This document shows, piece by piece, positions 20,489 to 39,383 of a stretch of 64,000 bases of DNA. The notes under the pieces were generated by a model. That model had not been told where the DNA came from, did no database searches, and was given only the letters and a program-made list of their open reading frames with translations. The DNA comes from a virus. Its lineage: Duplodnaviria; Caudoviricetes. Location of the stretch: the IMG/VR virus record IMGVR_UViG_3300005670_000014, positions 1-64,000 of that record; one strand, given 5' to 3'. The translations under genes and the position numbers were made by a program. Numbering within the stretch: position 1 is the stretch's first letter; the number at the start of each line of letters is the position of its first letter.

Positions 20489-20537
20489 GTCAATTTCTCC
20501 GTAGTGTGGGGAGTTATACGTTTACTGGCGTAAACGT

Positions 20538-20566
20538 AGTTTATCATGGAATTAAAGAGTTAGCAA
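20538..20566 (-). promoter_or_regulatory. Early promoter with inverted repeat
   Basis: TTGCTA-17-TAAACT with TG; TACGTTTAC-TGGC-GTAAACGTA. Confidence 0.8.
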
Positions 20567-23620: not shown

Positions 23621-24181
23621 TTAAAGTTTGCAAAGCTTTTCAATGCGTCGGCAAATCCATTGGGTTCTGTTTGTATAGTCGGGATTTTTGTTATATGCTT
23701 CCAGTTTCTTATCCAGCAAATAATCCATGAGTTCTATGTAACTCAATTCCATGCAGTTTAGTAATATACAGCAGAGTTTTACAGTGGCTACACTTGCACA
23801 TCTTTGGTAGTAAGGTCTACCCTTAAAATCTTTTTGGTCAGTTTTGACCACCAAGCAGACTTCCATGAGTGGACTGCGATCTGGAAATTGTTTATTGACC
23901 GCTTCTGCATTGCTTGACCACGGCCCTTTTAACACCACTTCACTGCCGTCTTGCATGATAATGGGAATGTGTCTGCCACCAAAACCTCCATTATTATCTG
24001 GACCTTTCCAGTAGAAAAAGCTACCGAAACCTTCAGTATCTTCAGCCCGGTATACACCGCAGCGTTCTTCATAGCGAAAGCAATGTGCTTCCAAGGATTG
24101 GAACTGATCTACTTCGATCTCAATTTGAGGATCTGTATCCCAATTTAAGCATAAATCAATCTTAGCGCCAATGATGTTCAT
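23621..24181 (-). CDS. Conserved phage hypothetical (GFGGR...LKGPWSSN family)
   Basis: GGAG RBS before MNIIGA. Confidence 0.7.
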   Translation of the reverse strand: MNIIGAKIDLCLNWDTDPQIEIEVDQFQSLEAHCFRYEERCGVYRAEDTEGFGSFFYWKGPDNNGGFGGRHIPIIMQDGSEVVLKGPWSSNAEAVNKQFPDRSPLMEVCLVVKTDQKDFKGRPYYQRCASVATVKLCCILLNCMELSYIELMDYLLDKKLEAYNKNPDYTNRTQWICRRIEKLCKL

Positions 24182-24231
24182 ACTTAATTTCTCCGTAATG
24201 TGGATTGTTATACGCTTACTGGCGTAAGCGC

Positions 24232-24260
24232 AGTTTAGCACGGAATTAAAGAGTTAGCAA
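24232..24260 (-). promoter_or_regulatory. Early promoter with inverted repeat
   Basis: TTGCTA-17-TAAACT with TG; CGCTTAC-TGGC-GTAAGCG. Confidence 0.8.
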
Positions 24261-24264
24261 ACAT

Positions 24265-24738
24265 TTACTGTAGAAATGTACAGTTAAATGAAGTGCAACC
24301 TTCAGCGTATTCAAAGAATGCATCTTCAACATCGCTCTGCCATTTACAATATTCTTCAAACTCTTTATCGGGATCTGGAACCTCTTCTTCACCTAATTCA
24401 TTCGTAGCCCACATCAAAAGATCATAATGTGTTTCAGTTTTATCAGTCTGAATCCATCCAGCGAAACATCCATCCGTAGATGTTCCAATGAGATAACCCG
24501 TTCCATTTTCTCTAAAAAAATTGATGTTAGTCAGATTTCGATAGTAATAATTGGGAATATAAATCTGCATTTTATCATTGAAAATGGTGGGGAACTCTGT
24601 TACTCGATGACCATTTTCATTTAAAAAGTAACCCTCTTCATCAATCCAAAGACCTTTTTTTAAGATGTTGATTATTTTTAGAAATGAATCTTGGTCACTA
24701 AAAACAATCTCACCTTCCATACGTGAATAAAAGGACAT
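24265..24738 (-). CDS. Hypothetical protein
   Basis: GGAG RBS before MSFYSR. Confidence 0.7.
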   Translation of the reverse strand: MSFYSRMEGEIVFSDQDSFLKIINILKKGLWIDEEGYFLNENGHRVTEFPTIFNDKMQIYIPNYYYRNLTNINFFRENGTGYLIGTSTDGCFAGWIQTDKTETHYDLLMWATNELGEEEVPDPDKEFEEYCKWQSDVEDAFFEYAEGCTSFNCTFLQ

Positions 24739-24739
24739 T

Positions 24740-24961
24740 TTAGTTCTCCAATCGTGGGATAAAAAGTGATTCCAGTTTAGACCAGCCATCTCCATTTTGG
24801 TAAACAAAACCTTCCACGGTACATGGAGTGGGAAAAGGTCCTTGTTCTTCAATTTGGTTAATGGCCCATTCTTTAACACAGTTATAGCCGTGTCCGAGAA
24901 TAATAACATCCTTAATTTTAGAACCGTTCGGTTTCCGAACGGAGATGTTTATCATATTCAT
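24740..24961 (-). CDS. Hypothetical protein
   Basis: GAGG RBS. Confidence 0.6.
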   Translation of the reverse strand: MNMINISVRKPNGSKIKDVIILGHGYNCVKEWAINQIEEQGPFPTPCTVEGFVYQNGDGWSKLESLFIPRLEN

Positions 24962-24962
24962 G

Positions 24963-25133
24963 TTAGTTCCTCTTCATGAAATAGTCATCGCTGGAAATAC
25001 GATGATCGCCTTCATCGTCAGTAATAATAATGGGTTGACCACAAGACCATCGTGCTAAATACATGGCAATGGTTAAGATTGTGCTATGAAATCGGCAGTG
25101 CATCCAAAAAGATTTTAAAGCGGATACCTTCAT
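24963..25133 (-). CDS. 56-aa hypothetical protein
   Basis: MKVSALKSFW...YFMKRN; GGAG RBS; below the ORF-track cutoff. Confidence 0.55.
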   Translation of the reverse strand: MKVSALKSFWMHCRFHSTILTIAMYLARWSCGQPIIITDDEGDHRISSDDYFMKRN

Positions 25134-25220
25134 CGTGAATTCTCCAGTGGAATAGTTGTACTGGAATATACAGATGTATCTTCCAGTACAACCACTCTGT
25201 ATTGAGTGGTTGTACTTTTA

Positions 25221-25562
25221 CTAGATGTTCATTAACATTCTAGCAATTTTTCGACCCACCTGCTCTACATTGTTAGCCTTCACTACGAACACATCTTGTC
25301 CATAAGCCGTCTTGAGTGACAGTCCGTTGGTAGATTGAAGCGCCACCAAATCTTCAATCAATGAATCTTCCATGCACACCAGCATCGGAATGTCCAGCAT
25401 CCTTAACACATTCACCAGTTCACCTATGCCCGGTGTGGTTGCGGCAACTTCCATCTTTCCACCAATCGAAACCATGGTAAAGAATTTGGATGGATTGTGA
25501 AAGTTTCTTGCTTTGGGAAGTATCTTGGACGTTTCGTAGTCTTGGCGATTTTCAATCATCAT
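25221..25562 (-). CDS. Hypothetical protein
   Basis: GGAG RBS before MMIENR. Confidence 0.65.
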   Translation of the reverse strand: MMIENRQDYETSKILPKARNFHNPSKFFTMVSIGGKMEVAATTPGIGELVNVLRMLDIPMLVCMEDSLIEDLVALQSTNGLSLKTAYGQDVFVVKANNVEQVGRKIARMLMNI

Positions 25563-25657
25563 TAATTCTCCGATTAGTGGGGGTATATCACACAATACAA
25601 CAAATCTGCTTGCTGTATTGTGTGATATACCCACATCTTATGATGTGGGTATTCAGT

Positions 25658-25861
25658 CTAGCGGTACTGTTGTGTTCGGTAATTCTTCCAGCTTTTGACT
25701 TGGTATGAACTTCTGACCCAATCATCCCATGCATTGGGAAGGTTACGTGCGGATCTGGCAGCACGTAATTTGATATTGACATCAAATTCTTTTGAGTCAA
25801 TAATCAGACCTGTCCACAGTTTACGCTCTTGAGTCGTTTTGGGGTGACGGTAATAAGACAT
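25658..25861 (-). CDS. Conserved small basic phage protein (R.PKTTQE...LP..WDD...SWK..R..Q family)
   Basis: Recognisable motif; AAGGAG RBS. Confidence 0.75.
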   Translation of the reverse strand: MSYYRHPKTTQERKLWTGLIIDSKEFDVNIKLRAARSARNLPNAWDDWVRSSYQVKSWKNYRTQQYR

Positions 25862-25871
25862 GATTCACTCC

Positions 25872-26129
25872 TTAATGTTGTCCAGAATCTCGGACGCGCC
25901 AAGTGTAACCATCATCATCTACACCGACGCACTCCAACAACTGCAATGAACTCCCTAATTCTTCCAGTACAGTATTGAGTTTGTTCTTGATGGGTTCCAT
26001 GTCATCCCAATACATGTGATCTGGTATAGCTTCTCCGTAAGCTATGACCGCATCTTCATTAATCTCGGATTCTAGCCAATCCATAATTTCTTGATCGTGC
26101 AACTTGCCAGACCATTCGATCTTTAACAT
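25872..26129 (-). CDS. Acidic hypothetical protein
   Basis: GGAG RBS. Confidence 0.65.
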   Translation of the reverse strand: MLKIEWSGKLHDQEIMDWLESEINEDAVIAYGEAIPDHMYWDDMEPIKNKLNTVLEELGSSLQLLECVGVDDDGYTWRVRDSGQH

Positions 26130-26169
26130 GTTAGTTCTCCGTAAAGTGCCATCCTTGGCAATGGAATCA

Positions 26170-26379
26170 TTAGTTTACTTTAACAACACAACCATCTTCA
26201 ATGGTTGCAGTAGCATACCATTTATGAGGCTGTGGGTAGTGTGGTCCTTCCAATGCTACCTTACCATTCTTGGGAGTATTGCCACCAAAAGGTCCGGGCT
26301 GGAAAATGGTCACGCGATCACCTTTGGCAATTGCTTCCTTCAAAGCTTTCTTTGTTTGAAAATTGGTGGAAGTATACAT
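26170..26379 (-). CDS. Conserved small phage protein (NFQTKK.LKEA...EGPHYP.PHKWYA family)
   Basis: Recognisable motif; GGAG RBS. Confidence 0.75.
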   Translation of the reverse strand: MYTSTNFQTKKALKEAIAKGDRVTIFQPGPFGGNTPKNGKVALEGPHYPQPHKWYATATIEDGCVVKVN

Positions 26380-26427
26380 GTTAATTCTCCAAGTTGTTCG
26401 TGGGTTGCGCAAAATTGGCGCAATCGC

Positions 26428-26456
26428 AGTGTATCACGCCAATGAAGATTTTGCAA
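26428..26456 (-). promoter_or_regulatory. Early promoter
   Basis: TTGCAA-17-TACACT with TG; TGGC at the conserved position (26416-19). Confidence 0.75.
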
Positions 26457-26460
26457 TGAA

Positions 26461-26634
26461 TTATACTAAAAACACAGTCAAAATCTTGAATGTGTTTAAA
26501 GTAAAATCTTGGCTGAGTAAATTCTCCACAGCCAATCTTGCCATTTCAGCGCATGTTGCGCCAAATCGAAAAGAACTTTTACGAATACTGTTCTTACGAG
26601 TCACAGCAATGTACGTAATTCTGAATTCGTTCAT
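26461..26634 (-). CDS. 57-aa hypothetical protein
   Basis: GGAG RBS before MNEFRI. Confidence 0.55.
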   Translation of the reverse strand: MNEFRITYIAVTRKNSIRKSSFRFGATCAEMARLAVENLLSQDFTLNTFKILTVFLV

Positions 26635-26683
26635 GACTAATTCTCCAAGTTTTCCAGTGCTTACACCATGCTGGCGCATGGCA

Positions 26684-26712
26684 ATTTTAACACGGCATTT
26701 AAGAGTTTGCAA
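26684..26712 (-). promoter_or_regulatory. Early promoter with inverted repeat
   Basis: TTGCAA-17-TAAAAT with TG; CCATGC-TGGC-GCATGG. Confidence 0.8.
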
Positions 26713-26719
26713 ATAATAC

Positions 26720-26748
26720 TTGACAACTAACTTTAGTTTCTGTATAGT
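26720..26748 (+). promoter_or_regulatory. Rightward sigma70 promoter, back-to-back with the leftward one
   Basis: TTGACA-17-TATAGT. Confidence 0.75.
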
Positions 26749-26876
26749 GAACACACTCCGTAGTAAGAGAAAAGAGTGCTAAAGATTTTATATCAGGTTG
26801 CTTTGTTTGATGTTCGGTTCTGCACTCCGATTACTACCTTCAAACAAAACAACCTTTTTATTTGGAGATTTTTAAA

Positions 26877-27758
26877 ATGATTACGTTAAAACGTCGAGAA
26901 ATAAAGCCCGTTTTAGTTTCCAATCAAGACGGTAAATTGAAAACGGATTCTTTAATTGTGGCGCGAGTGTTTGAAAAAGAGCATTTTAATCTGATGCGTG
27001 ATATTAGAAACATTACAGAATCAGATACGTATCTGAAGCGAATTAAAAATGGTACACAACCCAATTTTGAATTGTGCTTTAGAATCAATGAATTAGCCAA
27101 TGGTAAAAGAGTTCCTTACTACGAAATGGATCGTCAAGGTTTTGAAATTCTGGCAATGGGCTTTACGGGTGAAAAAGCACTAGAATGGAAATTTAAATAT
27201 TCTGATGCATTTGCTGCAATGGAAGAATTGTTGAAAAAGGAGCGTATTGTTGTTCAAGATAATCCGTTCAATTTGGAAGAGTTAGGTTTGGGATTGTTGC
27301 AAGTTGGATCTGAGCAACGACAAACAGCTAAACAGGTGCGTTGTCGTTGGGTGAACATCTTGCAAAATTCCATTGGTTGTGGAAACATCTGGGTTTGTCG
27401 TTTGACTAATGAAATCTACCAAAGTTTGTTGAATTGTCCGCAAGCAAACGCCAGAAATTTTCGTCAGCACATGAATCTTCCATTGATCTCTGCCATATTT
27501 TTGACGCGGGATCAATTAGAGGGCCACATACAGTCTTTCGTTACCGACATTGAATTGAGTGCAATCAGATTGTATTCTTTAAATCGTGAAGTCACCTTTG
27601 GCGAAATTCGGGAATTTATGTTGGGACAAGCTAAGATGTACCATAAGCAGTTGGTACGAATTGCACAGCAACCACCTTCAGCATTAGTGTTTGATCATGA
27701 ATACAATGTGGTGCCAATTCTTCCATACCGTGGAAGAAGGATGCAACAAACAGAGTAA
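26877..27758 (+). CDS. Rha-family regulator (full length)
   Basis: TDSLIVARVFEKEHFNLMRDI...PNF...YYEMDRQGFEILAMGFTGEKALEWKFKY..AF..ME; GGAG RBS. Confidence 0.85.
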   Translation: MITLKRREIKPVLVSNQDGKLKTDSLIVARVFEKEHFNLMRDIRNITESDTYLKRIKNGTQPNFELCFRINELANGKRVPYYEMDRQGFEILAMGFTGEKALEWKFKYSDAFAAMEELLKKERIVVQDNPFNLEELGLGLLQVGSEQRQTAKQVRCRWVNILQNSIGCGNIWVCRLTNEIYQSLLNCPQANARNFRQHMNLPLISAIFLTRDQLEGHIQSFVTDIELSAIRLYSLNREVTFGEIREFMLGQAKMYHKQLVRIAQQPPSALVFDHEYNVVPILPYRGRRMQQTE

Positions 27759-27867
27759 TACACTCCACTCTGCCAATACGCCGGGGTGATGTAAATTTTC
27801 ATCTTAATCATTGCAATTCATCAGATTTTACAGATAAAGTCTTAACGCCACTTCTCAATCTCGCCCC

Positions 27868-27890
27868 AAAAATCCCGCCCGAAGGCGGGA
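27868..27890 (-). terminator. Intrinsic terminator with UUCG tetraloop
   Basis: Minus strand TCCCGCC-TTCG-GGCGGGA-TTTTT. Confidence 0.8.
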
Positions 27891-27905
27891 GTGGAAGATC
27901 ATAGT

Positions 27906-28025
27906 TTAAACTGCGTGATAATCTCCGGTGAACGAATTGGGCGGGTTAATGATTTCTACAATAATCATCGACCCGATCAGATAGTACGTGTAACCCGGAT
28001 ATTGAAACGTAGTAAAAGGCAGCAT
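27906..28025 (-). CDS. 39-aa peptide (MLPF paralog)
   Basis: MLPFTTFQYPGYTYYLIG...; GGAG RBS. Confidence 0.5.
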   Translation of the reverse strand: MLPFTTFQYPGYTYYLIGSMIIVEIINPPNSFTGDYHAV

Positions 28026-28036
28026 ACAATTCTCCG

Positions 28037-28180
28037 TCACAATAAGTTCAGTTCTAAATCCCACAATGGGAAGGTGAAAACCTTGTACTCATTGACGGGT
28101 TGATGAATCTGCATGACGCAATGTTCAGCCAGCAGATAAAATGTTACGTCATCACCTGGCAAAGCGGCAAATGGTAGCAT
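28037..28180 (-). CDS. 47-aa peptide (MLPF paralog)
   Basis: MLPFAALPGDDVTFYLLA...; GGAG RBS. Confidence 0.5.
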   Translation of the reverse strand: MLPFAALPGDDVTFYLLAEHCVMQIHQPVNEYKVFTFPLWDLELNLL

Positions 28181-28191
28181 GTAAGTCTCCA

Positions 28192-28497
28192 TTATGGTTG
28201 GAAACCAAATTCAGAATCATCGGGGTCGTCATAGCCCCCTTGTTCCGGGCATTCTTCATCGTGCGTATCGGGGTCACAAACACCACCACAATCTGCGCAC
28301 ACCCACACGCTGTTCTCTTTGGACGTGGCAAATCGGTCATAACGACCTTTTGTTTCCAGCGGGTAATCTTCCGTGAGTGCCTTTTGTATGGTTTCGTGGT
28401 ATGCCGTAGCACACCCAGTTTCTTCATCACATGGGAAAAATCCATCTTCCGACCGATAATCTTCCCAACCGGGGCAACCCGTATTGAACATGCACAT
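28192..28497 (-). CDS. Cys-rich (Zn-binding) acidic hypothetical protein
   Basis: C....CP, CADCGGVC...CP; GAGG RBS. Confidence 0.6.
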   Translation of the reverse strand: MCMFNTGCPGWEDYRSEDGFFPCDEETGCATAYHETIQKALTEDYPLETKGRYDRFATSKENSVWVCADCGGVCDPDTHDEECPEQGGYDDPDDSEFGFQP

Positions 28498-28510
28498 GGT
28501 AATTCTCCTC

Positions 28511-28732
28511 TTACGCGGAATAGCGATTAATGATCTGACGATCCACGATGTAATCAAACCCTTGCCGATCTACATCGGCCAGCGTGAATAATGGACGACT
28601 CTCTTCATCCAGCACCACAATGGACACTAGATTTTCACGATGGTCTTGTGCCAACAATTCGTTAGCCCATTCTACCAACGCATCAAATGACGAATCGTTC
28701 TTCCATTGTGCAAATGACATGGCGCGAAGCAT
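28511..28732 (-). CDS. Hypothetical protein
   Basis: GGAG RBS; after a promoter. Confidence 0.65.
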   Translation of the reverse strand: MLRAMSFAQWKNDSSFDALVEWANELLAQDHRENLVSIVVLDEESRPLFTLADVDRQGFDYIVDRQIINRYSA

Positions 28733-28782
28733 ACTTAATTTCTCCGTAGTGTTGGGGTGTTTACGCTTACTGGCGTAAGCGC

Positions 28783-28811
28783 AGTTTAGCACGGTTTAAA
28801 AGAGTTTGCAA
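28783..28811 (-). promoter_or_regulatory. Early promoter with inverted repeat
   Basis: TTGCAA-17-TAAACT with TG; CGCTTAC-TGGC-GTAAGCG. Confidence 0.8.
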
Positions 28812-29117
28812 CTATGGAACGATCTTGGGTGTACGAAGTACCACAAATTCTTCCAATGTCGCACCGAGTTCTTCCATTTTGTCGGCAGTGATCTCCATAC
28901 CCCGTAAATCTGCTGGAATGTTTAATACCAGATGGAAGTAACGTCCTTGTCGATCCCAAATTTCGGCAGCGAGATGGATGGGTAGTGTTCCCAACACCAC
29001 GTCACCTTTTTCGACAGTCTTCACATCGAAATGCTCAACAATCTGAGCATCAAAGCCTTTACGCGCTGCCCAATCTTTGGCACCTTGATGCCGGGTCACA
29101 AAATAAGTCTTAGCCAT
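28812..29117 (-). CDS. csx16: Csx16 (Cas_VVA1548)-family protein, stand-alone; candidate viral ring nuclease
   Basis: TYFVTRHQGAKDWA...VEHFD...GDVVLGTLPIHLAAEI...GRYFHLVL.IP..LRG.EIT...M...GATLEEF covers the whole Csx16 pattern. Confidence 0.85.
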   Translation of the reverse strand: MAKTYFVTRHQGAKDWAARKGFDAQIVEHFDVKTVEKGDVVLGTLPIHLAAEIWDRQGRYFHLVLNIPADLRGMEITADKMEELGATLEEFVVLRTPKIVP

Positions 29118-29118
29118 G

Positions 29119-29199
29119 TTAGCGATCTCGTCTAAAAGTAGTGGACAAAATATAAAGAATCATGCCGAAAATAACGGCAAGCATAATGATCTCACTCAT
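29119..29199 (-). CDS. 26-aa single-pass membrane peptide
   Basis: MSEIIMLAVIFGMILYILSTTFRRDR; GGAGG RBS. Confidence 0.5.
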   Translation of the reverse strand: MSEIIMLAVIFGMILYILSTTFRRDR

Positions 29200-29257
29200 C
29201 AAACACCTCCATTAATTCGTGGATAAAAGCCATCCTTGGCTCAAGAATGCTGTTTAG

Positions 29258-29908
29258 CTAGTTTTTGAATTGCCGCCAGCACTCTCTAACATGGTCTACA
29301 ACATTCATCGGATTATGACCTCCGATCTTGTTGCGTGGATGTTCTTCATCAATCCATGGGGAGTCGTTATACTCTAGCCAGTGCCAAAATTGGTTTTGGA
29401 CTCTGGCTACAGCTTCTTTACCACCCAAGTCGCCTTCACACGCGACTAGCCATTCACGTCTGACGTATACGGGATGCGTCGGCAGTATAAATTCTGCTGA
29501 TGTAGCGGGGATGCTACCTTCGGGCCGCTTGACATCTACCCACCACGCATACGGTGCGTGTTGGTAATTCTTCAATTCACTATCTAACACTGGAAAATCT
29601 TCCAGTGCTGATGCACCCAAGCACAAGTAGCCGTAGTAATCTCCATCCTCAACGAGTTCGTCATCATCCGTGGGAAACGGAATCTCGGCAATGAACACAG
29701 TGATCTCCACCGGACCCAATCTGTGTTCCGGGTCAATGGTATCCCACAGCGGGATGGGTGTCTTAACCTTCCATAGTTGGCCCACATTTGCATCTTTCGG
29801 CTGTACATGTGCAAAGTCTGCCCGTGCTTTGGTGGTGCGGGCGATGGCGTCTTTCACGAACGCTGGAACTTCTACCACTTGAGCAGTGGCCTTTTGAAAC
29901 TCGGACAT
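29258..29908 (-). CDS. Hypothetical protein
   Basis: GGAG RBS. Confidence 0.7.
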   Translation of the reverse strand: MSEFQKATAQVVEVPAFVKDAIARTTKARADFAHVQPKDANVGQLWKVKTPIPLWDTIDPEHRLGPVEITVFIAEIPFPTDDDELVEDGDYYGYLCLGASALEDFPVLDSELKNYQHAPYAWWVDVKRPEGSIPATSAEFILPTHPVYVRREWLVACEGDLGGKEAVARVQNQFWHWLEYNDSPWIDEEHPRNKIGGHNPMNVVDHVRECWRQFKN

Positions 29909-30012
29909 GGAGTATCTCCGGGTGGATGAAACAACAAATGGGTTTTAATGCAAGCATACCTTGTGACGACATGCTTGCATTAAAACCCACTCTTGCGAGT
30001 GGGTTATGGGGA

Positions 30013-30888
30013 TTACGCCGCCTTGGCCGCCTTGGCCGCTTTGCCCGACTTGCCAGTCTTGACAACTGGGGGCTTGATGACCTTAACGGTAGCATCCGGC
30101 TTGGCAGTCTCGGGCTTGGTCTCTGCCGCTTTAGCCAAAGTAGCGGCCTTTTGCGCCTGGACTTTCTTCATCGCCGCTTGTGCAGCCGTGGCGAAGTCTT
30201 TAGCACCCGACAATCGCTTGGCAACGGTCAAGCCACCTTCCGCTAGCAAGTTAGCAAATTTCTTTTGCGACTCAATGGCTTGCAGCACCTCATCGGTGGG
30301 CAACAATTCTTGATTTTCATGGAAGCAGCGAATCTCGGATGCACTCCCATCCATAGCGTAGTCTTCCATGCAGCCGTAATCTAGTGTGGTATACGCTGAT
30401 GGAATCTTAGTAATGGGCGCACCCACCTTTACTGAACGGGAAGTACCTACCCACAACGATTGGGTAGCGGCCATTCTCCAGCTTTGCGCCCACGCAATGA
30501 ACTCTTGTGGCCTACCCGTCTTGGCAGCATCCTTACTCTTGTGCCGATCCACCTTTGACTTGCTGTTGGCGTTAAACGCCAATACAAATCTGGGTGCTGT
30601 TCCGCAAGCATAGCCTACGCTCACGGGATCGGCAATCGTTTGGTATTCTTTGGGGATGAATTCCCCTTTTTGGAAAGTTTCCCAGTTCTCCAGCATCCAT
30701 GCGATTGTGGGGAAATTCCCTGCGTTGCACAAAAGGTGTGCGAACATATTCGCTTCCATGCTCTTATTACTCACCGCCAAACCTGCGGTTGCCGTAGCAC
30801 ACCGTTTCAATTCTAGCCCGGTGATCTGTTTGATCAGTACCAAAGCCTCTTCGCGTTGTTGCTTCACTAAACTGTTATCTTTAGCCAT
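30013..30888 (-). CDS. Hypothetical protein with Lys/Ala-rich (histone H1-like) tail
   Basis: GGAG RBS before MAKDNS; tail KAAETKPETAKP...KTGKSGKAAKAAKAA. Confidence 0.7.
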   Translation of the reverse strand: MAKDNSLVKQQREEALVLIKQITGLELKRCATATAGLAVSNKSMEANMFAHLLCNAGNFPTIAWMLENWETFQKGEFIPKEYQTIADPVSVGYACGTAPRFVLAFNANSKSKVDRHKSKDAAKTGRPQEFIAWAQSWRMAATQSLWVGTSRSVKVGAPITKIPSAYTTLDYGCMEDYAMDGSASEIRCFHENQELLPTDEVLQAIESQKKFANLLAEGGLTVAKRLSGAKDFATAAQAAMKKVQAQKAATLAKAAETKPETAKPDATVKVIKPPVVKTGKSGKAAKAAKAA

Positions 30889-30968
30889 GCTATATTCTCC
30901 GCAGCGCATTAAAGCGCATTTAAAAGTCTCAAAAAAAGCGCCATGCATTGCCATGCTGGCGCAAATGG

Positions 30969-30997
30969 ATTTTAGCACACTCGAAAAGAATGTGCAA
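30969..30997 (-). promoter_or_regulatory. Early promoter
   Basis: TTGCAC-17-TAAAAT with TG; CCATGC-TGGC-GC at the conserved position. Confidence 0.75.
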
Positions 30998-31006
30998 CGG
31001 TTAATT

Positions 31007-31174
31007 TTAAAATTCTGGCAATGCAATTACATCCAGCACTTCATCTGCCCATGTAGCTGCTTTCAGCACCTGATGCTTAGCATCCGCCTCATTAACAGCC
31101 ATCAGACACAAATTGATTTCCGTTCCATGGAAATCATCTTCAATAACATACACCACCACGATGAATTCTTTCAT
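31007..31174 (-). CDS. 55-aa hypothetical protein
   Basis: MKEFIVVVCII...; GGAG RBS; below the cutoff. Confidence 0.6.
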   Translation of the reverse strand: MKEFIVVVYVIEDDFHGTEINLCLMAVNEADAKHQVLKAATWADEVLDVIALPEF

Positions 31175-31223
31175 GACGTATTCTCCGTAAATGCGCTAGT
31201 CCACTATGTGCTGGCGCGTTTGC

Positions 31224-31252
31224 AGCATAACATGCTGCGGAAGAGTTTGCAA
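31224..31252 (-). promoter_or_regulatory. Early promoter
   Basis: TTGCAA-17-TATGCT with TG; TGGC at 31212-15. Confidence 0.75.
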
Positions 31253-31260
31253 CTATTTCG

Positions 31261-31470
31261 TTAAGAGTGTTGCAAACTATTTGCAGAACTAAATGCACGA
31301 TCTCCGTGCTTATCCCAACATGATGGGTAAATCACCTGTTGTTTCCGGCTCTCATAAAAGCCGGAACCATCCAAAAAGAGCGTCAACATTACATCGGGTG
31401 CTAAGATGATGTTGATGCCAGTATCTTTGTATCCAAATGATGCGAATTTCTCCGCCATTGAACCGTTCAT
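31261..31470 (-). CDS. Hypothetical protein
   Basis: AAGGAG RBS. Confidence 0.6.
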   Translation of the reverse strand: MNGSMAEKFASFGYKDTGINIILAPDVMLTLFLDGSGFYESRKQQVIYPSCWDKHGDRAFSSANSLQHS

Positions 31471-31649
31471 GTTAACTCCTTATAAATCACATCGTCCAAA
31501 TATCTGGACGCTTGGGTGTAAGTGACTTTAAATTCTTTAGCAAAGTCACACAAAAAGGCGTGGGTTGCAGCGGGGGACGTCTTGCCACGCAAGATGAAAT
31601 CCATCACACGCTCTTTGCATTTCAAATCCAATGCGCTCATCTGACTCAT
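31467..31649 (-). CDS. Hypothetical protein
   Basis: ATGA overlap with the upstream gene. Confidence 0.55.
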   Translation of the reverse strand: MSQMSALDLKCKERVMDFILRGKTSPAATHAFLCDFAKEFKVTYTQASRYLDDVIYKELT

Positions 31650-31957
31650 TTCCAATCCTCCATCTCTGCTAGTTCATCGTAGTACAACTCTGTTTCCTCG
31701 TCATAGTCATCATCTGACCATTTCTGGGCAGTAGTTTGGAATGATGAAAAATTAGCCAAGTTGCTCAAGTAGAACATTTTGAACATCTTGGTTTTGCCGG
31801 TAACATCATCCCAATCCAGCAAGTTTTCTTCGTACACATACGATCCATCCTTGAGTTTATGGATGACATCCGATTCTTCCATGGGTTCGAATCTGGATTC
31901 GACAACATTTTGTAAATCTAACTGCTGATTTTCTACAACCATGTGGGCTAACGACAT
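31646..31957 (-). CDS. Acidic hypothetical protein
   Basis: GGAG RBS before MSLAHM. Confidence 0.6.
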   Translation of the reverse strand: MSLAHMVVENQQLDLQNVVESRFEPMEESDVIHKLKDGSYVYEENLLDWDDVTGKTKMFKMFYLSNLANFSSFQTTAQKWSDDDYDEETELYYDELAEMEDWK

Positions 31958-32045
31958 GACAATATCTCCAGTTGTGGATGGGTACATCGGTATATACATT
32001 TGCATATACCGATGTACCCACTCTTGCGAGTGGGTACTAAAACTC

Positions 32046-32282
32046 TTACACGGCCATATCCAATCGGAAAACCATCTTCCGATAGCTTTCCAACTTCTGC
32101 CGCTTGGGCTGCAAGTAGTCTTTACGATCACGGTTGCGCGATCCCATCTTGGAACCATCGCGCACTTCCTTAGCGCAATTCTCCAACAGCCGTGCCAACC
32201 ACATGGCATCTCCAGTTTGCCATGCGTGATACAGCGGCAAATCTTTGGATTTCGTTTGTGGACTACGGAAAGTTCTGCTCAT
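32046..32282 (-). CDS. Basic hypothetical protein
   Basis: GGAGGT RBS before MSRTFR. Confidence 0.6.
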   Translation of the reverse strand: MSRTFRSPQTKSKDLPLYHAWQTGDAMWLARLLENCAKEVRDGSKMGSRNRDRKDYLQPKRQKLESYRKMVFRLDMAV

Positions 32283-32283
32283 T

Positions 32284-32523
32284 TCACACCTCCCAAGCTG
32301 ACCAATCAAAGTCGGCAGATTTCACAATCCAGTTGCCATCTTTAAAAATGGCGCTTTTCGCTTCCAAACCTTTGCCGCATTTCTCCACGGCGGCAACTGC
32401 ATAGTCCATGACTTCTTGAGCCGTAGCATCCTTACCAACCCGTCCGTAGTAGACGGGGTTGGACTCTCCCCATTGGACAAGCACTTGCCCTTTGGGGTTG
32501 GGCAGTTTAAATTCTTTCAGCAT
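32284..32523 (-). CDS. Hypothetical protein
   Basis: GAGG RBS before MLKEFK. Confidence 0.6.
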   Translation of the reverse strand: MLKEFKLPNPKGQVLVQWGESNPVYYGRVGKDATAQEVMDYAVAAVEKCGKGLEAKSAIFKDGNWIVKSADFDWSAWEV

Positions 32524-32617
32524 GGCATTTTCCTCTTTTATGGATGGGTACATCAGTAAGTACATCTTGCACTTACTGATGTACCCACACCTTTCACAGT
32601 GTGGGTACGGAAACGAA

Positions 32618-32854
32618 TTACTCGATAATCTCATTGGGGACAGCACCGCCCCAATCTTCCAGCCGCAACCGGAATTTATCTGACGGATATGCTGCACGAA
32701 TCCGTTTTAGCTCTTTCAAAGCCGACTCTCGTGTAATGGGACGCATGACTTTGAAATCTACGAATTCACCCGTTTCCAGGATCTCAATGACCGCATTATC
32801 CACATTTCCGGGAATTAAGAACGGACGACTAAAAACCGGAATTGAATAGTTCAT
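32618..32854 (-). CDS. Hypothetical protein
   Basis: GGAG RBS before MNYSIP. Confidence 0.6.
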   Translation of the reverse strand: MNYSIPVFSRPFLIPGNVDNAVIEILETGEFVDFKVMRPITRESALKELKRIRAAYPSDKFRLRLEDWGGAVPNEIIE

Positions 32855-33078
32855 TACAGTTTCTCCACGACGATGGTGATCGTTTCCTGCTCGTTTGAGC
32901 AACTAAATCCTTCGCGCACACTTCCTTGTATGCTATACCCTTTTTGCTGCAAAAGCCCGCGAAGCTCTTTCAAAAACTGCACCATCTTGGTGCCATCTTT
33001 GACATCTGTCATCCGACGACCTTGCCGCAGCACATCTACAGCATACGAATTACGGGGTAAAATACCTGTCAAGTTCAT
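32854..33078 (-). CDS. Hypothetical protein
   Basis: GGAG RBS before MNLTGI. Confidence 0.6.
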   Translation of the reverse strand: MNLTGILPRNSYAVDVLRQGRRMTDVKDGTKMVQFLKELRGLLQQKGYSIQGSVREGFSCSNEQETITIVVEKL

Positions 33079-33155
33079 GTCAATTCTCCGTGGTTGTGGG
33101 GGTAAAGTCTCTTCATTCGGTGGTACGAATGAACGCACCACCTGATGAAATTACT

Positions 33156-33503
33156 CTACATGGAAATTAAGCAATCTTTGCGTGGCGAATACTTGAATTT
33201 CCATTGTTTATTATCTTTTAGTCCCGTGAATACGTATTTTTTGGATACGATTTGGGCCTTGACATCAGCATATCCATTCTTTTCCAGTGTTCGACACAGT
33301 GTGTTACGATCTTTCACCGGAAGTTTGGAATGCCAATCTTCCGATACCCATGATATTGCTCTTTGTGGCTCTCCATTTTCGTTGGTGCCGCAAATCAGCA
33401 AATCCAATTCTGGCTTACTTTGCACAACGTAAGCGATACACTCATCTTTCGATCCATAAAACCGGAACGATCCCCCGCATTCTTGCACGATTACGAAGTT
33501 CAT
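33156..33503 (-). CDS. Hypothetical protein
   Basis: GGAG RBS before MNFVIV. Confidence 0.65.
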   Translation of the reverse strand: MNFVIVQECGGSFRFYGSKDECIAYVVQSKPELDLLICGTNENGEPQRAISWVSEDWHSKLPVKDRNTLCRTLEKNGYADVKAQIVSKKYVFTGLKDNKQWKFKYSPRKDCLISM

Positions 33504-33505
33504 GA

Positions 33506-33613
33506 TCAATTCTCCGTCAGTTCTTTGATTGAAGTGGGTCTTTGTAGCCATAAATTGGCTACAAATAAATATGCCAAAGTCTGCGCTCTGGCAAACGCTT
33601 GCTCTTTACTCAT
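33506..33613 (-). CDS. 35-aa peptide
   Basis: MSKEQAFARAQTLAYLFVANLW...; GGAG RBS. Confidence 0.45.
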   Translation of the reverse strand: MSKEQAFARAQTLAYLFVANLWLQRPTSIKELTEN

Positions 33614-33681
33614 GTTAATTCTCCGTGGTGGACAAAATAAACTCAACAATAGCCGCATAAGAACGCGGCTATCAGCAAAGT

Positions 33682-33921
33682 TTATTCAGCCTGCATCTGA
33701 GCAGCTTCTAATTCAGCTTGCATCTCATCGAATTCTTTTGTCCATGCATGTCCATTCCATTCGATCTGGCGTCCGTTGCTCCCTTTAACGAAATGGGTAT
33801 ACATCACCCCATGTTCATGTGTCACCTTCACTAAGTACAAGTGAATCTGTTTTCCGTCAAATTTGACGTAGTTGGGGTCATTCTCAACAACCCGGAACAA
33901 TGCTTTAGTCTGATACATCAT
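33682..33921 (-). CDS. Hypothetical protein
   Basis: GGAG RBS; after a promoter. Confidence 0.65.
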   Translation of the reverse strand: MMYQTKALFRVVENDPNYVKFDGKQIHLYLVKVTHEHGVMYTHFVKGSNGRQIEWNGHAWTKEFDEMQAELEAAQMQAE

Positions 33922-33984
33922 AATTCTCCCGAAAGTTAAAACATCTTAAATAAGTACGCCAAGCTATATAGCTTGGCGCAACCC

Positions 33985-34013
33985 ATTTTAAATCCGATTG
34001 AAAGAGTTTGCAA
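33985..34013 (-). promoter_or_regulatory. Early promoter with inverted repeat
   Basis: TTGCAA-17-TAAAAT; CGCCAAGCT-ATAT-AGCTTGGCG. Confidence 0.7.
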
Positions 34014-34103
34014 ACATTATTTTCATGACATCTGAAAATAATTTGCCCAAAAACATAGACATAGCGTTCAACGCCATGTCCACGTCTGCTCCCAAATTCC
34101 ATG

Positions 34104-34253
34104 TCAGAAGCTGTGAATAATCTGCTCGCGCAAACCCATCAAGAGTTTGAACTCAAATTCTCGTACCACGCTTTTCTTAGCGTGGACAAAATGCCGACAA
34201 CCTCCATGTTGAAGTTTCCAGCACACGAATCCCACACGTATAAGAGTGTTCAT
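34104..34253 (-). CDS. 49-aa hypothetical protein
   Basis: MNTLIRVGFVCW...; GGAG RBS. Confidence 0.45.
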   Translation of the reverse strand: MNTLIRVGFVCWKLQHGGCRHFVHAKKSVVREFEFKLLMGLREQIIHSF

Positions 34254-34267
34254 GCCAATTCTCCCAG

Positions 34268-34807
34268 TTAAACTTTACTTTGCAAACACAACTTGTAAAG
34301 CTCAAGATCAAATTCTCCACGCCGCCAGTCTTCGAATAACTCCAACGCATCGAAGAGGAATTGTGTTTCTTTGAACAGCATGGGAAAACCACGACCCCCT
34401 TTAGCCGCACCATCGAAGATACCAAATTCTCGCATACAGTTCTCCCATTCCCGACCATGCGGATATACGGTTATCTTCATTAGCGAAGCATTGAAGTACT
34501 TTTTCTGGATAATCCCATGACACACCTCATGAACTGCCGTGTGTGCCACCTGATAAAACAAATCTAGTTGATTTTCAATTCTTCGTAAATCCACGATGGT
34601 AGCGGGAGACAGCGTCACCGACGAAATCCCTTTGTCGTAGTAGTACGTACACGATCCTAAAGAACGTGCTCTGGAATCTTTACCGATGCTGATGTGTTCA
34701 GCATCTCGACCCCGCAGCATTTTGCTTTTCGTAACAAAAAGTTGGAAAAGGTACCATGCTGAGTTGATTTCGTTCTGCCGGTTTGAAACTTTGCAAAAAG
34801 CTTTCAT
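34268..34807 (-). CDS. SprT-like zinc metalloprotease
   Basis: HEVCH (HExxH) followed by PHGREW...M..FG. Confidence 0.7.
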   Translation of the reverse strand: MKAFCKVSNRQNEINSAWYLFQLFVTKSKMLRGRDAEHISIGKDSRARSLGSCTYYYDKGISSVTLSPATIVDLRRIENQLDLFYQVAHTAVHEVCHGIIQKKYFNASLMKITVYPHGREWENCMREFGIFDGAAKGGRGFPMLFKETQFLFDALELFEDWRRGEFDLELYKLCLQSKV

Positions 34808-34940
34808 GACTCAATTCCCCAAGTGAGTAGAGCGATCACATGCTCTCTGAAAAGACAAAAATCTCTGAAAAAGACAGTTGAAAAAACGTCGGGAAAAACA
34901 ACTGTTATTCCCGACGTGATTTGTTTCATATGAAACAAAT

Positions 34941-36977
34941 TTATTTCAACCCCGCCCAAGTCTGGTTGCGGACTTCTCCATCGAAAAACATCTTGCGGAA
35001 CTGCACGGGTTTACGGTAAGCAGTTAATATCTGCTTAATATCCGAAGTATCCATCCCGCAATCTTCAACCAACTGTCTAGCCCGTTGCAATCTTTCCAGC
35101 TCTTCCATGTTAATACAACGAGCCAACACCGTCACGTCTTCCGGGAACAAGTGTTCACGGATATTGAGCCACGGCGAATCTCCATCCATGTAAACGCTCT
35201 CGATGGATAAATCGTTCAACCGGATCATGTAACTCTTCAGCATCCGTTCCAAATCATCTTTCGTCAATTTCGCATTCAGTCCATGAGTAAAGCCTTTTTC
35301 CAACTCTTCAGCCGCAAAGCCTCCGAAGTTGAATCCCAACTCTCCGAACTTCTCCACCATGCCAGCAGCATCGACAATTCCGGCAAACTGATCTAACTCA
35401 TGTCCGGGCGCTGTGATCTGAATCCAAATCGTACTTTCCGTCAATACGGCTGATCTGGCACCATTGACCGTACATGATTTGTCTCCGTTCCGCAGTTTGG
35501 AACTCTTGGACTTGTACATCTTACCAACATTCTTCGAAGCATTCCGAGCCAATTCCCGGTTAGCATTCTTCGAACTTTGAACCCATGATTTAGCCAAGTT
35601 CTTCCGTGCCATCTCCAAGTACGTCAATCCCGACTCTGGATCGTAAATTTCGTCGTAATAATCGGATACGTCATTATCTCCGACTAAATTTTCCACCGAA
35701 TTATTACGACGACCACCTAACAGCTTGCGGATCTGATCATCCAGATTCCACTGGATGAACCGTTCGCAGTTCTGCGATTGCCGCATTGCATCCAATGCCG
35801 GAATGTATATCTTTGGAGCTAAACCATTCTTGTTCAGCCGACTACTTGAAACACCTGCCATCGCATTGATGGCTAATTTCTTGGAATCTTTGCTTGGAAA
35901 CTTCCAAGCATAGTACGATTCCAGTGGATTGGGACAATCTGCCAGCCACGCTTCCATGACTGACCAATCTGAAGCTTCCGAGCAGTAAGCTGATAATTCT
36001 CCATGACACGCATTCCATGCTGCCAAATTGACCGCTTCACCTCCCACGTTGATCCATCCACCTGCACAGCGGCATTGCCGATGTCTGACGTATGGGACTA
36101 AACCCACCATGAAAATCTCCCGGCGACCATCTGCCGTTAAATCCATGTTCTTTGACGACATCGGAATCGAAATTATTTTCAGAGCTTCAAATTCCTCTTT
36201 CAGCATGATGCCGCACTCGATGGAATTCTCCAGTGGTTCATGGACGAGCACTTCCTTCTTAAACACCGTCCCATTCTTTTCCACTTCAATCTCGACACTT
36301 GGATGCTTGGCAACGGAAACGGGACGGAGCGAAATCACAGTCTTCCCGTATTGCCGTGAACTGGACATGAACGTGGGCTTGTTCTTTTCATTCAAGCCAC
36401 CGTCGAAGACTTTGATGGTTCCCGATGATTGCGAACCACGGGGATTCTTCAGTTGTGAATCCCAGTCTGAGCCGAATTTCATGCTCATGGCAACATCGAA
36501 TGCACTCTTGATTCGACGTTCTGTTACCACGGAAGATGCTGTAATCGGAACAACGGTTACGCGGTCAATCACTTTTTCATCTTCGAAAAATTGACCGTCG
36601 ACTTCCACTATTTCTTTCACAGTTTCCTTCCAATGGTATTCTGTGTCATCTTTGGAAACAGTGGAATGAACTGCGTAATCCACTTCTTCATCTTCCGTAT
36701 CCAGTCGTTTCACGAGTTCCAGTCTGAATGCTGCTTGCTGGAACGATAAAACATCTCGTTCGGATTCAGCAGCCAGTTGCGAACCTCCGTAGCCAATCCA
36801 TGCTATCTGATCCGTGGCATCCAATGCCCGGTAGTAGTTCTCCAAACATGCAGCATCCAAGCCACCAAAATCAAGAGCTTCGATACTGCTCCATACTGCC
36901 GATACCACGGCGGACTCTGCACCCGAACATTCCAGCCGGAGTTTCATCTCCAGCAAACGTTGGTCAATGTGGTTCAT
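34941..36977 (-). CDS. Large orphan early protein (678 aa)
   Basis: Long ORF with GGAG RBS and its own promoter; no motif recognised. Confidence 0.75.
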   Translation of the reverse strand: MNHIDQRLLEMKLRLECSGAESAVVSAVWSSIEALDFGGLDAACLENYYRALDATDQIAWIGYGGSQLAAESERDVLSFQQAAFRLELVKRLDTEDEEVDYAVHSTVSKDDTEYHWKETVKEIVEVDGQFFEDEKVIDRVTVVPITASSVVTERRIKSAFDVAMSMKFGSDWDSQLKNPRGSQSSGTIKVFDGGLNEKNKPTFMSSSRQYGKTVISLRPVSVAKHPSVEIEVEKNGTVFKKEVLVHEPLENSIECGIMLKEEFEALKIISIPMSSKNMDLTADGRREIFMVGLVPYVRHRQCRCAGGWINVGGEAVNLAAWNACHGELSAYCSEASDWSVMEAWLADCPNPLESYYAWKFPSKDSKKLAINAMAGVSSSRLNKNGLAPKIYIPALDAMRQSQNCERFIQWNLDDQIRKLLGGRRNNSVENLVGDNDVSDYYDEIYDPESGLTYLEMARKNLAKSWVQSSKNANRELARNASKNVGKMYKSKSSKLRNGDKSCTVNGARSAVLTESTIWIQITAPGHELDQFAGIVDAAGMVEKFGELGFNFGGFAAEELEKGFTHGLNAKLTKDDLERMLKSYMIRLNDLSIESVYMDGDSPWLNIREHLFPEDVTVLARCINMEELERLQRARQLVEDCGMDTSDIKQILTAYRKPVQFRKMFFDGEVRNQTWAGLK

Positions 36978-37044
36978 GACTTAATTCTCCAGTTGAAGCC
37001 AAGTTCTTGCCAAATACCCCGTCAAAACGGAATTTGGCAAGTGT

Positions 37045-37073
37045 ATTTTACCACGATTACTCAGATTTTGCTA
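37045..37073 (-). promoter_or_regulatory. Early promoter for the 678-aa gene
   Basis: TAGCAA-17-TAAAAT with TG; inverted repeat CTTGCCAAAT / ATTTGGCAAG. Confidence 0.6.
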
Positions 37074-37250
37074 CCGAGTCTGAGTAAAGTGGGATAACGA
37101 ATGTTTCCAATCTTCCGCTGAACTGCGAATGGGAGTGTTGGAAAGTTGAAAGATAAAGAACCCAAGTGTACCCCATAGCAAGATGAGACGGGGAATTTCT
37201 GGGAGTACGAAACAACATAACCAATCCAGAATTTCGAGTAAGGTTTTCAT
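37071..37250 (-). CDS. Small membrane protein
   Basis: GGAG RBS; hydrophobic segment. Confidence 0.55.
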   Translation of the reverse strand: MKTLLEILDWLCCFVLPEIPRLILLWGTLGFFIFQLSNTPIRSSAEDWKHSLSHFTQTR

Positions 37251-37316
37251 CTTAATTCTCCGGTTGTAAAACATGTCTGGTCATTTTGACCGCTGAAAAA
37301 TGATGCTGGCGCATCC

Positions 37317-37345
37317 ATGATAAACCCCATTTGCAGAGTTTTCAA
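37317..37345 (-). promoter_or_regulatory. Early promoter with inverted repeat
   Basis: TTGAAA-17-TATCAT; GATGC-TGGC-GCATC. Confidence 0.65.
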
Positions 37346-38000
37346 CCATTTTCGGTTGAATGCCTGCGGGTTGGATTCAAAACCCGTTCAAAAATCGTCT
37401 GGAAACCCGCCAAAATCGTCTCACAAGCCACGCAATCCAGAAAGTAGTATGATGGTAGCGGGTAGAGGAATGACCCCTCTCAAATCGTCTCGTTGGGGCT
37501 TTGTCGAACGTGGGTCGTTTGAGAGTTTGATTTCTGGATGGGAATGTTGTGTCCAATTTCTTGGAAGCTTCCGATTTGCTGGCTGATTTCATCTTAAATT
37601 CAAGAATATTGTAGCCAAGCCACAGCATTTCAGATGGTGCTACATTCTCCAATGGAACCACCCCTCCGGGTCGGTAAACGCAGTTTAACACGAATCAAAT
37701 CAGATGTCAATACTTTTCTCAACAAAATAATAAATAAATATTCATTCATAAAGAGTTTCATATTATGTAATTACTGTATAACTCTTCATGACACAATTCT
37801 TTAACCATATGGAATCTTCGTACAAACTCTTTCAAATTTCAATCTCAGTATGGAGAGTTTGCAACGCCGACTCTGCGCCTGCTCCCAAAAAGAGGGTTAA
37901 AAACTCTTCATAGTTGTCAAATTCCCGCACTACATAGCTTGATTTCTCCAGTACGTAGTGCTATGCTGTTCCTCTACGTAGTTACTTATTGGAGAGTTTG

Positions 38001-38300
38001 ATGAAAAAGTTATCGTTGGAAGAGCGTTGGGTTAGTAAGATTGATGAATCTTCGGATGACAACTCTTGTTGGTTGTGGAAAGGAAGTCGATCTACTCAAG
38101 GGTATGGACAGATGTGTGTTAATAAGAAACAAGTGTTGGCACACCAGATCGGCTGGCAACTCATGGGTAAATCTATATGTAGAGGGAAAACACATCTCCG
38201 AAACAGGTGTGGTAACAAACTCTGTGTTAATCCCGATCATTGGGAAAAAGAGTTGAAAGTGAAGTCTTTGTTCGTATGTACTGGGGAAGATCTGGATTAA
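38001..38300 (+). CDS. Short HNH/His-Me-like endonuclease (possibly degenerate)
   Basis: CWLWKG...GYG...AHQIGW...CGNKLCVNPDH; antisense insertion. Confidence 0.65.
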   Translation: MKKLSLEERWVSKIDESSDDNSCWLWKGSRSTQGYGQMCVNKKQVLAHQIGWQLMGKSICRGKTHLRNRCGNKLCVNPDHWEKELKVKSLFVCTGEDLD

Positions 38301-38400
38301 AACTCTTTTGTCCATGCGTTTTTACGTCAGTACATAGTCTAGTCAATTCAGCGTGAAGGTATTACGTAATATGTACCATGTAATACCTTCACGCTTGAAT

Positions 38401-38910
38401 CTAATCTAGCATGTCCCACACATCTTCACTGATGTCGTCAATGATCTGTTGTAACAGATCTGGACGAGTGAATTCTTGAGTCCAGGTGAAACTCAAGTCT
38501 TTCGCTTTGGGACGTTTCACACCTAACTCTTTCATACATTTTCTCCATTCATAGCCATGATGTTGGGTGTATGAGAGCATACTTTCATAATGCCATCCTT
38601 CATCCATCATCACTAAAGTCTGTCGTTGATGCCCCGTTTCATGGAGTGCTAACATGATATTCAGAGTTAGAAGAACATTACCTCTGCGCTCTTTGGGTAG
38701 ACTCAAGACACGACTCTCCATCCAGTCGGGATCAAAGCCATAGTAGAATGTTAGACCTTCATGATCCGTATATGAAGTTCTGACAAACGCAATGGAGTGA
38801 TCTTCTCGATCTGGAATAAAGAGTTGTTTGAAAGGTGTAAGATAGTTCCACTCAATGCGCTGATGCACAGAGCGAACAGTGTGGTGATACAATTCTTCGT
38901 ACTGATTCAT
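38401..38910 (-). CDS. SprT-like zinc metalloprotease, second copy
   Basis: HETGH (HExxH) ... HHGYEWRKCMKELG; GGAG RBS. Confidence 0.7.
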   Translation of the reverse strand: MNQYEELYHHTVRSVHQRIEWNYLTPFKQLFIPDREDHSIAFVRTSYTDHEGLTFYYGFDPDWMESRVLSLPKERRGNVLLTLNIMLALHETGHQRQTLVMMDEGWHYESMLSYTQHHGYEWRKCMKELGVKRPKAKDLSFTWTQEFTRPDLLQQIIDDISEDVWDMLD

Positions 38911-38912
38911 GA

Positions 38913-39383
38913 TTAACTCTCCGTGATAATACGCATGGAAATGATATCTGATGGTAAGATCAAAGCTTCCACCAGATGGGGAGTATCCCGCCAAACCTCT
39001 TCACAGTCAAACTCTTCGCCAAACTCCAACCAGCGAGAGTATGACGCACAACTACGACCTTGAATTCTCCACCACTTACTCTTAACTCGTTTCATTCTTG
39101 GATGCTCGAATGGAGAGTCTGCATTGTCGCTCCATGACATGAAATCTGATTTCAACCATCTCTTCGTGGGTTGTAATGACAGATCACGGATGCATGTCAC
39201 TTCTAACTCTACCAATGTGGTTCTCCAATCATCCAAGTTGTGGGAGAGCTGCAATGCCCAAGCCAGAGCTTGGTCCACTGATCTTGTTACAAAGATCGCA
39301 TCACCGATTCCTTCTTGGAAGAGCATACCCCAATCATTGGCGGTAGATGGATTATCTGGATTAACAACTTTGTACACTTTCAT
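38913..39383 (-). CDS. Hypothetical protein (weak ADP-ribosyltransferase-like motif order)
   Basis: GGAG RBS; KVYK ... FVTRSVDQALAWA ... EALILP. Confidence 0.6.
   Translation of the reverse strand: MKVYKVVNPDNPSTANDWGMLFQEGIGDAIFVTRSVDQALAWALQLSHNLDDWRTTLVELEVTCIRDLSLQPTKRWLKSDFMSWSDNADSPFEHPRMKRVKSKWWRIQGRSCASYSRWLEFGEEFDCEEVWRDTPHLVEALILPSDIISMRIITES

Follow-up and report, generated by a model that had tools for sequence, protein, structure and literature searches.

The question raised by this locus is why a tailed phage should carry, on its own, a gene for Csx16, a protein whose typical context is a type III CRISPR-Cas locus. The DNA analyzed here (the window) comprises the initial 64 kb of a linear IMG/VR virus record of 88,785 bases, and the gene is a 101-aa ORF on its minus strand. 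The original prediction took the product for a captured host ring nuclease that serves the phage as an anti-CRISPR. Our analysis leads to a similar answer: we consider it likely that phage csx16 encodes a stand-alone cA4 ring nuclease which acts early in infection against type III CRISPR and keeps CARF/SAVED effectors switched off.

Profile searches of the window protein resulted in matches to both models of the family. Pfam PF09652 (Cas_VVA1548) scored 111.5 bits (E = 2.2e-32; curated cut-off 25 bits), with residues 5-92 aligned to positions 1-89 of the 91 in the model, i.e. over its full length, and NCBIfam TIGR02620 (Csx16) scored 93.7 bits against a cut-off of 46.35. The family alignment comprised 28 sequences, namely the window protein and 27 homologues of 39-97% identity from a protein collection. 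All 14 of its invariant columns (F6, R9, H10, G12, W16, A17, H29, D39, G43, L45, P46, L63, R72, and A86) and all 11 near-invariant columns are kept in the window protein, as are the conserved polar residues (His, Arg, Asp) and the TRH, GTLP, HL, and RG motifs. The full-length Csx16/Cas_VVA1548 match that the original prediction had claimed was therefore recovered by both models, and the motifs it had quoted (TRH.GA..W, GD.V.GTLP, Y.HL, and LRG.E) correspond to invariant or near-invariant columns, every one of them present. A search with the family-alignment profile returned 1,637 cluster representatives with E-values up to 0.001; judged by its sequence, the window protein is a typical stand-alone member of the large Csx16 family. 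Tandem two-domain Csx16 proteins of ~205 aa were numerous among these profile matches (P0033-P0040, and P0046 onwards), and in other matches Csx16 domains were fused, at either end, to proteins of 400-900 aa. The natural tandem forms fit a dimeric unit and the fusions fit a link to effectors, in both cases indirectly.

An AlphaFold2 model of window Csx16 with the family alignment as input (pLDDT 93.7, pTM 0.83) contained five strands (residues 4-7, 25-27, 40-43, 59-64, and 87-91) and four helices. This predicted fold, of the derived Rossmann/CARF-like class, matches the core fold reported for Csx16, a five-stranded beta-sheet flanked by helices (PMC12409355). In the model, T8-R9-H10 sits in the loop joining strand 1 to helix 1, and the same loop site holds the catalytic His in Csx15 and the catalytic Ser in Crn1 (PMC13148439). 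A sequence search of the PDB with the Csx16 family profile found no solved structure, and Foldseek comparison of the model with the PDB gave no match at E 0.001 or better, the structure matches being confined to generic Rossmann-like folds and weak matches to ring nucleases.

The messenger in question, cyclic tetra-adenylate (cA4), is the alarm signal of type III CRISPR and a product of type III Cas10 enzymes. Biochemical work has established that Csx16, a ring nuclease encoded in type III CRISPR loci, is specific for cA4 (Hoikkala et al. 2025, PMC12409355); the tested protein, one cellular representative, fully degraded cA4 supplied at 100-fold excess in 1 h in vitro, and cA3 and cA6 were not degraded (PMC12409355). 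These biochemical data exceed the link to cyclic-oligoadenylate turnover on which the original prediction had drawn. The phage protein might nevertheless act on another signal or outside CRISPR altogether, either by countering CBASS or some other cyclic-oligonucleotide defense or by serving phage regulation through its Rossmann-like nucleotide-binding fold. We regard such a role as unlikely, given that the window protein is 55-62% identical to Csx16 copies beside Cmr operons, that it has kept every invariant residue, and that the family member tested was cA4-specific. Phage sponges for cyclic nucleotides are also known, and Csx16 could sequester cyclic oligoadenylate, or cleave it so slowly that sequestration dominates, in which case it would still be directed against type III systems. 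This possibility draws on the related Csx15, for which almost no activity was seen at first and a sponge role was discussed (PMC12409355). It is made improbable, however, by the complete turnover of excess cA4 by the tested Csx16 and by the retention in window Csx16 of every His and Arg residue that this enzymatically active family conserves. Enzymatic removal of cA4 is the reading that we carry forward.

The carrier of csx16 is a real tailed phage, uncultured and large. The record encodes a large terminase, portal, head protease, major capsid protein, ribonucleotide reductase, and SbcC-like nuclease, and with the capsid protein of any isolated phage its major capsid protein shares no more than 32% identity. 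Between ~6,000 and 42,800 the genes are nearly all small and on the minus strand. Three further ORFs, all on the plus strand, are of unusual architecture. A single ORF of 4,662 aa (67104-81092) lies past the window end in the tail-gene region. The large subunit of ribonucleotide reductase (51076-54225; 1,049 aa) is covered by profiles over residues 12-301 and ~590-989, and the ~290 middle residues with no profile match may be an inserted domain or an intein. In the large terminase ORF (55970-58669; 899 aa) the terminase profile spans residues 444-856 only, with ~440 N-terminal residues outside it.

No type III CRISPR-Cas locus was found next to the gene or elsewhere in this record. Profiles for the Cas10 palm (PF22335) and RAMP (PF03787) families had no match in the whole 88.8-kb record, and both families were also absent from related viral contigs of 111 kb and 65 kb. 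Similarly, tblastn with the Cmr1-6, Cas10, and CARF proteins of cellular Csx16 loci found none of them in the record or in the related phage loci. The 88.8-kb record contains no CRISPR-like spaced repeats, matches between the phage and the repeats of arrays beside cellular Csx16 genes did not exceed 16 nt, and Rfam at gathering thresholds gave no match in the window. The absence of cas genes and arrays, first noted for the window, consequently holds for the entire record as regards Cas10 palm, RAMPs, and CRISPR-like repeats. A type III neighborhood is the typical context of Csx16 and does not define the protein family. CRISPR-Cas systems are carried by some phages, and because the record is ~68% complete by the CheckV estimate, a cas module could lie in the missing third, with Csx16 as the off-switch of the phage's own system. 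We consider this very unlikely in view of the 88.8 kb in which no Cas10, RAMP, or array was found and of the relatives from which Cas10 and RAMP are absent; moreover, bacterial Csx16 genes lie within a few kb of cas genes, whereas this one lies among small, putatively early genes.

Searches for a host returned no match, each with uncertain sensitivity: BLAST of window positions 24000-43900 against 5 genomes with a related Csx16 gene and 107 from the order to which Thiofilum flexile belongs, and BLAST of 60 cellular Csx16 loci, including their CRISPR arrays, against the phage, in which a spacer-like match was sought. The named relatives of the Rha protein (Candidatus Competibacter, a Gammaproteobacteria MAG, and Desulfobulbus) match it in the N-terminal domain only and do not fix the host.

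A csx16 gene occupies the equivalent position in no fewer than six further phage contigs (L004, of 58 kb; L005; L009/L010, from IMG/VR; L071/L072; and L074), whose Csx16 proteins are 66-90% identical to that of the window. The shared flanks consist, on one side, of homologues of a 291-aa gene and, further upstream, of a 678-aa gene, and on the other side of 73-aa and 121-aa genes and a Rha-like regulator. One of these contigs, L072, comes from the metagenome of a sulfur-cycling cyanobacterial mat (10.1101/2023.01.30.526236). Pairwise dN/dS among four orthologues was 0.05-0.20, with synonymous sites near saturation. This synteny across contigs and the low dN/dS indicate that csx16 is old in the lineage and under purifying selection. 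The suggestion that it is a passenger, i.e. a recently acquired host gene or an assembly chimera without function for the phage, could appeal to its GC content of 46.7% against a window mean of ~40%, yet it is contradicted by the recurrence of the gene at one position in six or more assemblies made independently from different samples, by the strong purifying selection, and by neighboring phage genes of similar GC (46-52%), and we give it almost no credence. Because the gene matches these neighbors in GC, there is no compositional sign of recent transfer.

Pattern scans of IMG/VR, based on the protein and on the family alignment, recovered just two more contigs; the patterns were narrow and do not amount to a census. 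Another contig of 2.8 kb, L073, has nothing but csx16 in common with this phage. The gene there (positions 1268-1555) lies behind a strong terminator-like hairpin, and its product, 65% identical to window Csx16, clusters with the phage clade; the L073 gene may reside on a different mobile element.

The origin of the phage gene was approached through its cellular relatives. P0014 (62% identity) directly follows Cmr3-Cmr6, P0018 (55%) precedes a full Cmr operon including Cas10, and the Csx16 of Rhodomicrobium vannielii (59%) adjoins two CARF-family genes. Related Csx16 genes were examined at 60 genomic loci, chiefly of Thiotrichales and Hyphomicrobiales; by a crude tblastn, 42 of these loci have Cmr, Cas10, or CARF genes no more than 10 kb away, and a CRISPR-like array was present in 8 of the remaining 18. 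In a maximum-likelihood tree of 114 sequences, whose deep forks are not resolved because the alignment has only 99 columns, the 12 phage-lineage rows formed one side of a branch (UFBoot 100 / SH-aLRT 79) in 100% of bootstrap trees. Phage context was verified for 7 of these 12 rows (the window and six loci); the other five (P0001 and P0007-P0010) are close homologues assigned to the lineage by sequence. The next branches outside the phage clade were P0015 with L073 (100/97) and then the Cmr-linked P0014 (100/89), a placement of the phage clade with which a quick tree agreed, and the clade is shallow relative to the divergence of the family overall. P0014 is the nearest relative of known context and stands beside a Cmr (type III-B) operon. 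Since the phage copies form one clade and their nearest relative of known context is Cmr-linked, capture from a host fits, and the tree placement is consistent with what the original prediction had said of the gene's origin. A single old capture from a type III-B locus would be the simplest reading. On balance we lean toward the fuller history in which large uncultured siphophages took Csx16 once, long ago, from a type III-B system and have kept it as a dedicated early anti-CRISPR.

In addition to the protein itself, we examined how csx16 might be expressed (Table 1). The promoter-like sites at 30996-30969 and 28811 delimit an apparent transcription unit consisting of the 291-aa gene, a long hairpin, a 216-aa gene, a micro-ORF, and csx16, with the second promoter probably marking the end of the unit. 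The 291-aa gene is conserved upstream of csx16 in every related phage contig examined (L004, L005, L009, L010, L071, and L074). Homologues of the 216-aa ORF likewise precede csx16 in L010 (53% identity) and L005 (43%), and none was found in L004, L009, or L074. The long hairpin, which is overlapped by a shorter upstream one, is possibly a partial terminator or an RNA switch within the unit. The GCCAAGGATGGC hairpin ahead of the micro-ORF in the window recurs in L005, L071, and L074. Translational coupling is probable given the single base that separates the micro-ORF stop from the csx16 ATG, and a comparable micro-ORF of 26-37 aa, ending at or overlapping the csx16 start, was present in six of the seven phage-context loci examined (the window, L004, L005, L009, L071, and L074). 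The micro-ORF may couple or regulate csx16 translation, and the conserved hydrophobic micro-ORF together with the AGGA-loop hairpin upstream of it may tune csx16 expression.

Table 1. Features of the csx16 region and of the repeated promoter family (positions in the window)
Feature	Position	Strand	Remarks
Promoter-like site TTGCAC, 17 nt, TAAAAT	30969..30996	-	Member of repeated promoter family; likely start of csx16 unit; scan row TGCACA-16-TAAAAT; with the reading shifted one base upstream, TTGCAC-17-TAAAAT
291-aa ORF	30013..30888	-	First gene of apparent unit; Pfam and PHROG searches without family; Lys/Ala-rich repeat tail (30013-30052), encoded by 9-bp tandem repeat at 30017-30052
Long intergenic hairpin, then T-rich run	29939..30005	-	20-bp stem at 29987-29941; between 291-aa and 216-aa genes
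216-aa ORF	29258..29908	-	No Pfam family; upstream of csx16 in same apparent transcription unit
Shine-Dalgarno GGAGG and short hairpin, GCCA-AGGA-TGGC core	29200..29249	-	Ahead of micro-ORF; terminator-like scan row 29249-29231
Micro-ORF, 26 aa	29119..29199	-	N-terminal half hydrophobic; stop one base before csx16 ATG
csx16 CDS	28812..29117	-	Stop codon included; ATG at 29117, TAG at 28814-28812; 101 aa; predicted cA4 ring nuclease (PF09652, TIGR02620)
Next family promoter TTGCAA, 17 nt, TAAACT, with 7-bp hairpin, GCCA loop	28764..28811	-	Begins on base after csx16 stop
Promoter with 7-bp GCCA-loop hairpin, aligned copies (n=4)	12684-12731, 20519-20566, 24213-24260, 28764-28811	-	
Further promoter-family sites	18934, 21581, 26712, 30996, 34013	-	

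The promoters belong to a repeated sigma-70-type family on the minus strand, composed of TTGCAA, a AACTCTTT-rich 17-nt spacer, and TAAACT. The spacer motif gave 9 matches where 0.86 were expected. In the four aligned copies, one pair of the hairpin stem changes from C-G to T-A, a compensatory substitution, and a GGAG ribosome-binding site follows the promoter-hairpin element. Of the "early array" in which the gene had originally been placed, the minus-strand block of small genes with repeated sigma-70-type promoters is borne out, while "early" is itself a reading of these motifs, from which we infer early expression of csx16. Pfam searches of 20 neighboring and early-block proteins gave only sub-threshold SprT-like and DUF6205 matches, which do not establish an anti-defense island.

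Taken together, these results suggest the following model. A promoter recognized by the host RNA polymerase would drive csx16, probably early in infection, and the product would most likely form a homodimer. Once a type III Cas10 in the host had detected phage RNA and made cA4, Csx16 would bind the cA4 and cut it into linear di-adenylates, so that cA4-dependent CARF/SAVED effectors (Csx1/Csm6, Can, Card nucleases, etc.) would never be switched on. The phage, whose lineage would have captured the gene once from a type III-B locus and then kept it, would thereby possess an anti-type III enzyme that works like AcrIII-1 and comes from another family. Dimer formation, cA4 cleavage, expression timing, and the effect on immunity are predicted elements of this model, and the comparisons made here render an anti-CRISPR role of phage Csx16 credible. 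Protection could be partial, since the Cas10 HD nuclease, target-RNA cleavage, and cA6, cA3, or SAM-AMP signaling would be untouched by a ring nuclease.

Type III CRISPR is hard for phages to evade by point mutation, which makes degradation of the second messenger one of the few general escape routes, and to our knowledge only AcrIII-1 and AcrIII-2 have been shown to defeat type III immunity in this way. AcrIII-1 evolved faster turnover than Crn1. The natural, diverged phage orthologues of Csx16 (66-97% identity) and their nearest cas-linked cellular relatives provide a ready-made panel with which to ask whether viral Csx16 turnover is likewise faster than that of the cellular enzyme. The novelty of the case is lowered because Csx16 activity has already been shown and phage copies have already been counted, at 2 of 28,114 phage genomes against 68 CRISPR loci (PMC12409355), and the case reveals no new mechanism or strategy. 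New here are a phage lineage with a conserved csx16, a plausible donor context, and the conserved micro-ORF and hairpin upstream of the gene. Our data also suggest that cA4 signaling exerts lasting selection on a group of phages for which metagenomes, among them that of a sulfur-cycling cyanobacterial mat, are the only source.

Compared with cellular Csx16, the phage protein belongs to the same family over its full length and shares the conserved residues, the predicted five-stranded alpha/beta fold, and a comparable size (~95-105 aa). Unlike the cellular copies it is the product of a phage gene, which has no accompanying cas gene or array and lies within a block of small promoter-dense genes, and its C-terminus bears a short extension, PKI[IV]P, absent from the cellular copies in the alignment. 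The presumed roles are opposed as well, in that cellular Csx16 resets host signaling whereas phage Csx16 would sabotage it. The only isolated virus in the phage collection that matched the window protein by tblastn was Methanobacterium virus Drs3 (MH674343), whose ORF 3, annotated Cas_VVA1548, is 39% identical over 84% of the query. The Drs3 copy is likewise small and stand-alone and lies among hypothetical genes near the genome end; Drs3, however, is a 37-kb archaeal virus, and its Csx16 is only distantly related and of predicted function.

The established viral cA4 ring nuclease among anti-CRISPRs is AcrIII-1/Crn2 (DUF1874), whose activity has been demonstrated (Athukoralage et al. 2020, as cited in PMC12830947). 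The window protein had been predicted to be distinct from AcrIII-1 and indeed belongs to a different sequence family, with no match of PF08960 (DUF1874) to the protein at E up to 1 or in three phage records at E up to 0.1. AcrIII-1 is mainly viral and Csx16 mainly cellular; the anti-CRISPR effect of AcrIII-1 has been shown experimentally, whereas that of phage Csx16 is predicted, and our literature search found no experimental test of a phage Csx16. According to the work cited in PMC12830947 and PMC13148439, AcrIII-1 and AcrIII-2 both neutralize type III immunity by destroying cA4. AcrIII-2/Crn5 (SAVED) and the phage and plasmid Crn4b follow the same counter-defense logic, that of a viral enzyme degrading cyclic oligoadenylate (PMC13148439, PMC12830947), but their folds and families are unrelated to Csx16, and Crn4 is of broad specificity whereas the tested Csx16 is cA4-specific. 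If the reading proposed here is shown to hold, phage Csx16 would be the first demonstrated anti-CRISPR of the Csx16 type and would add a further independent family of viral ring nucleases to AcrIII-1, AcrIII-2, and Crn4b.
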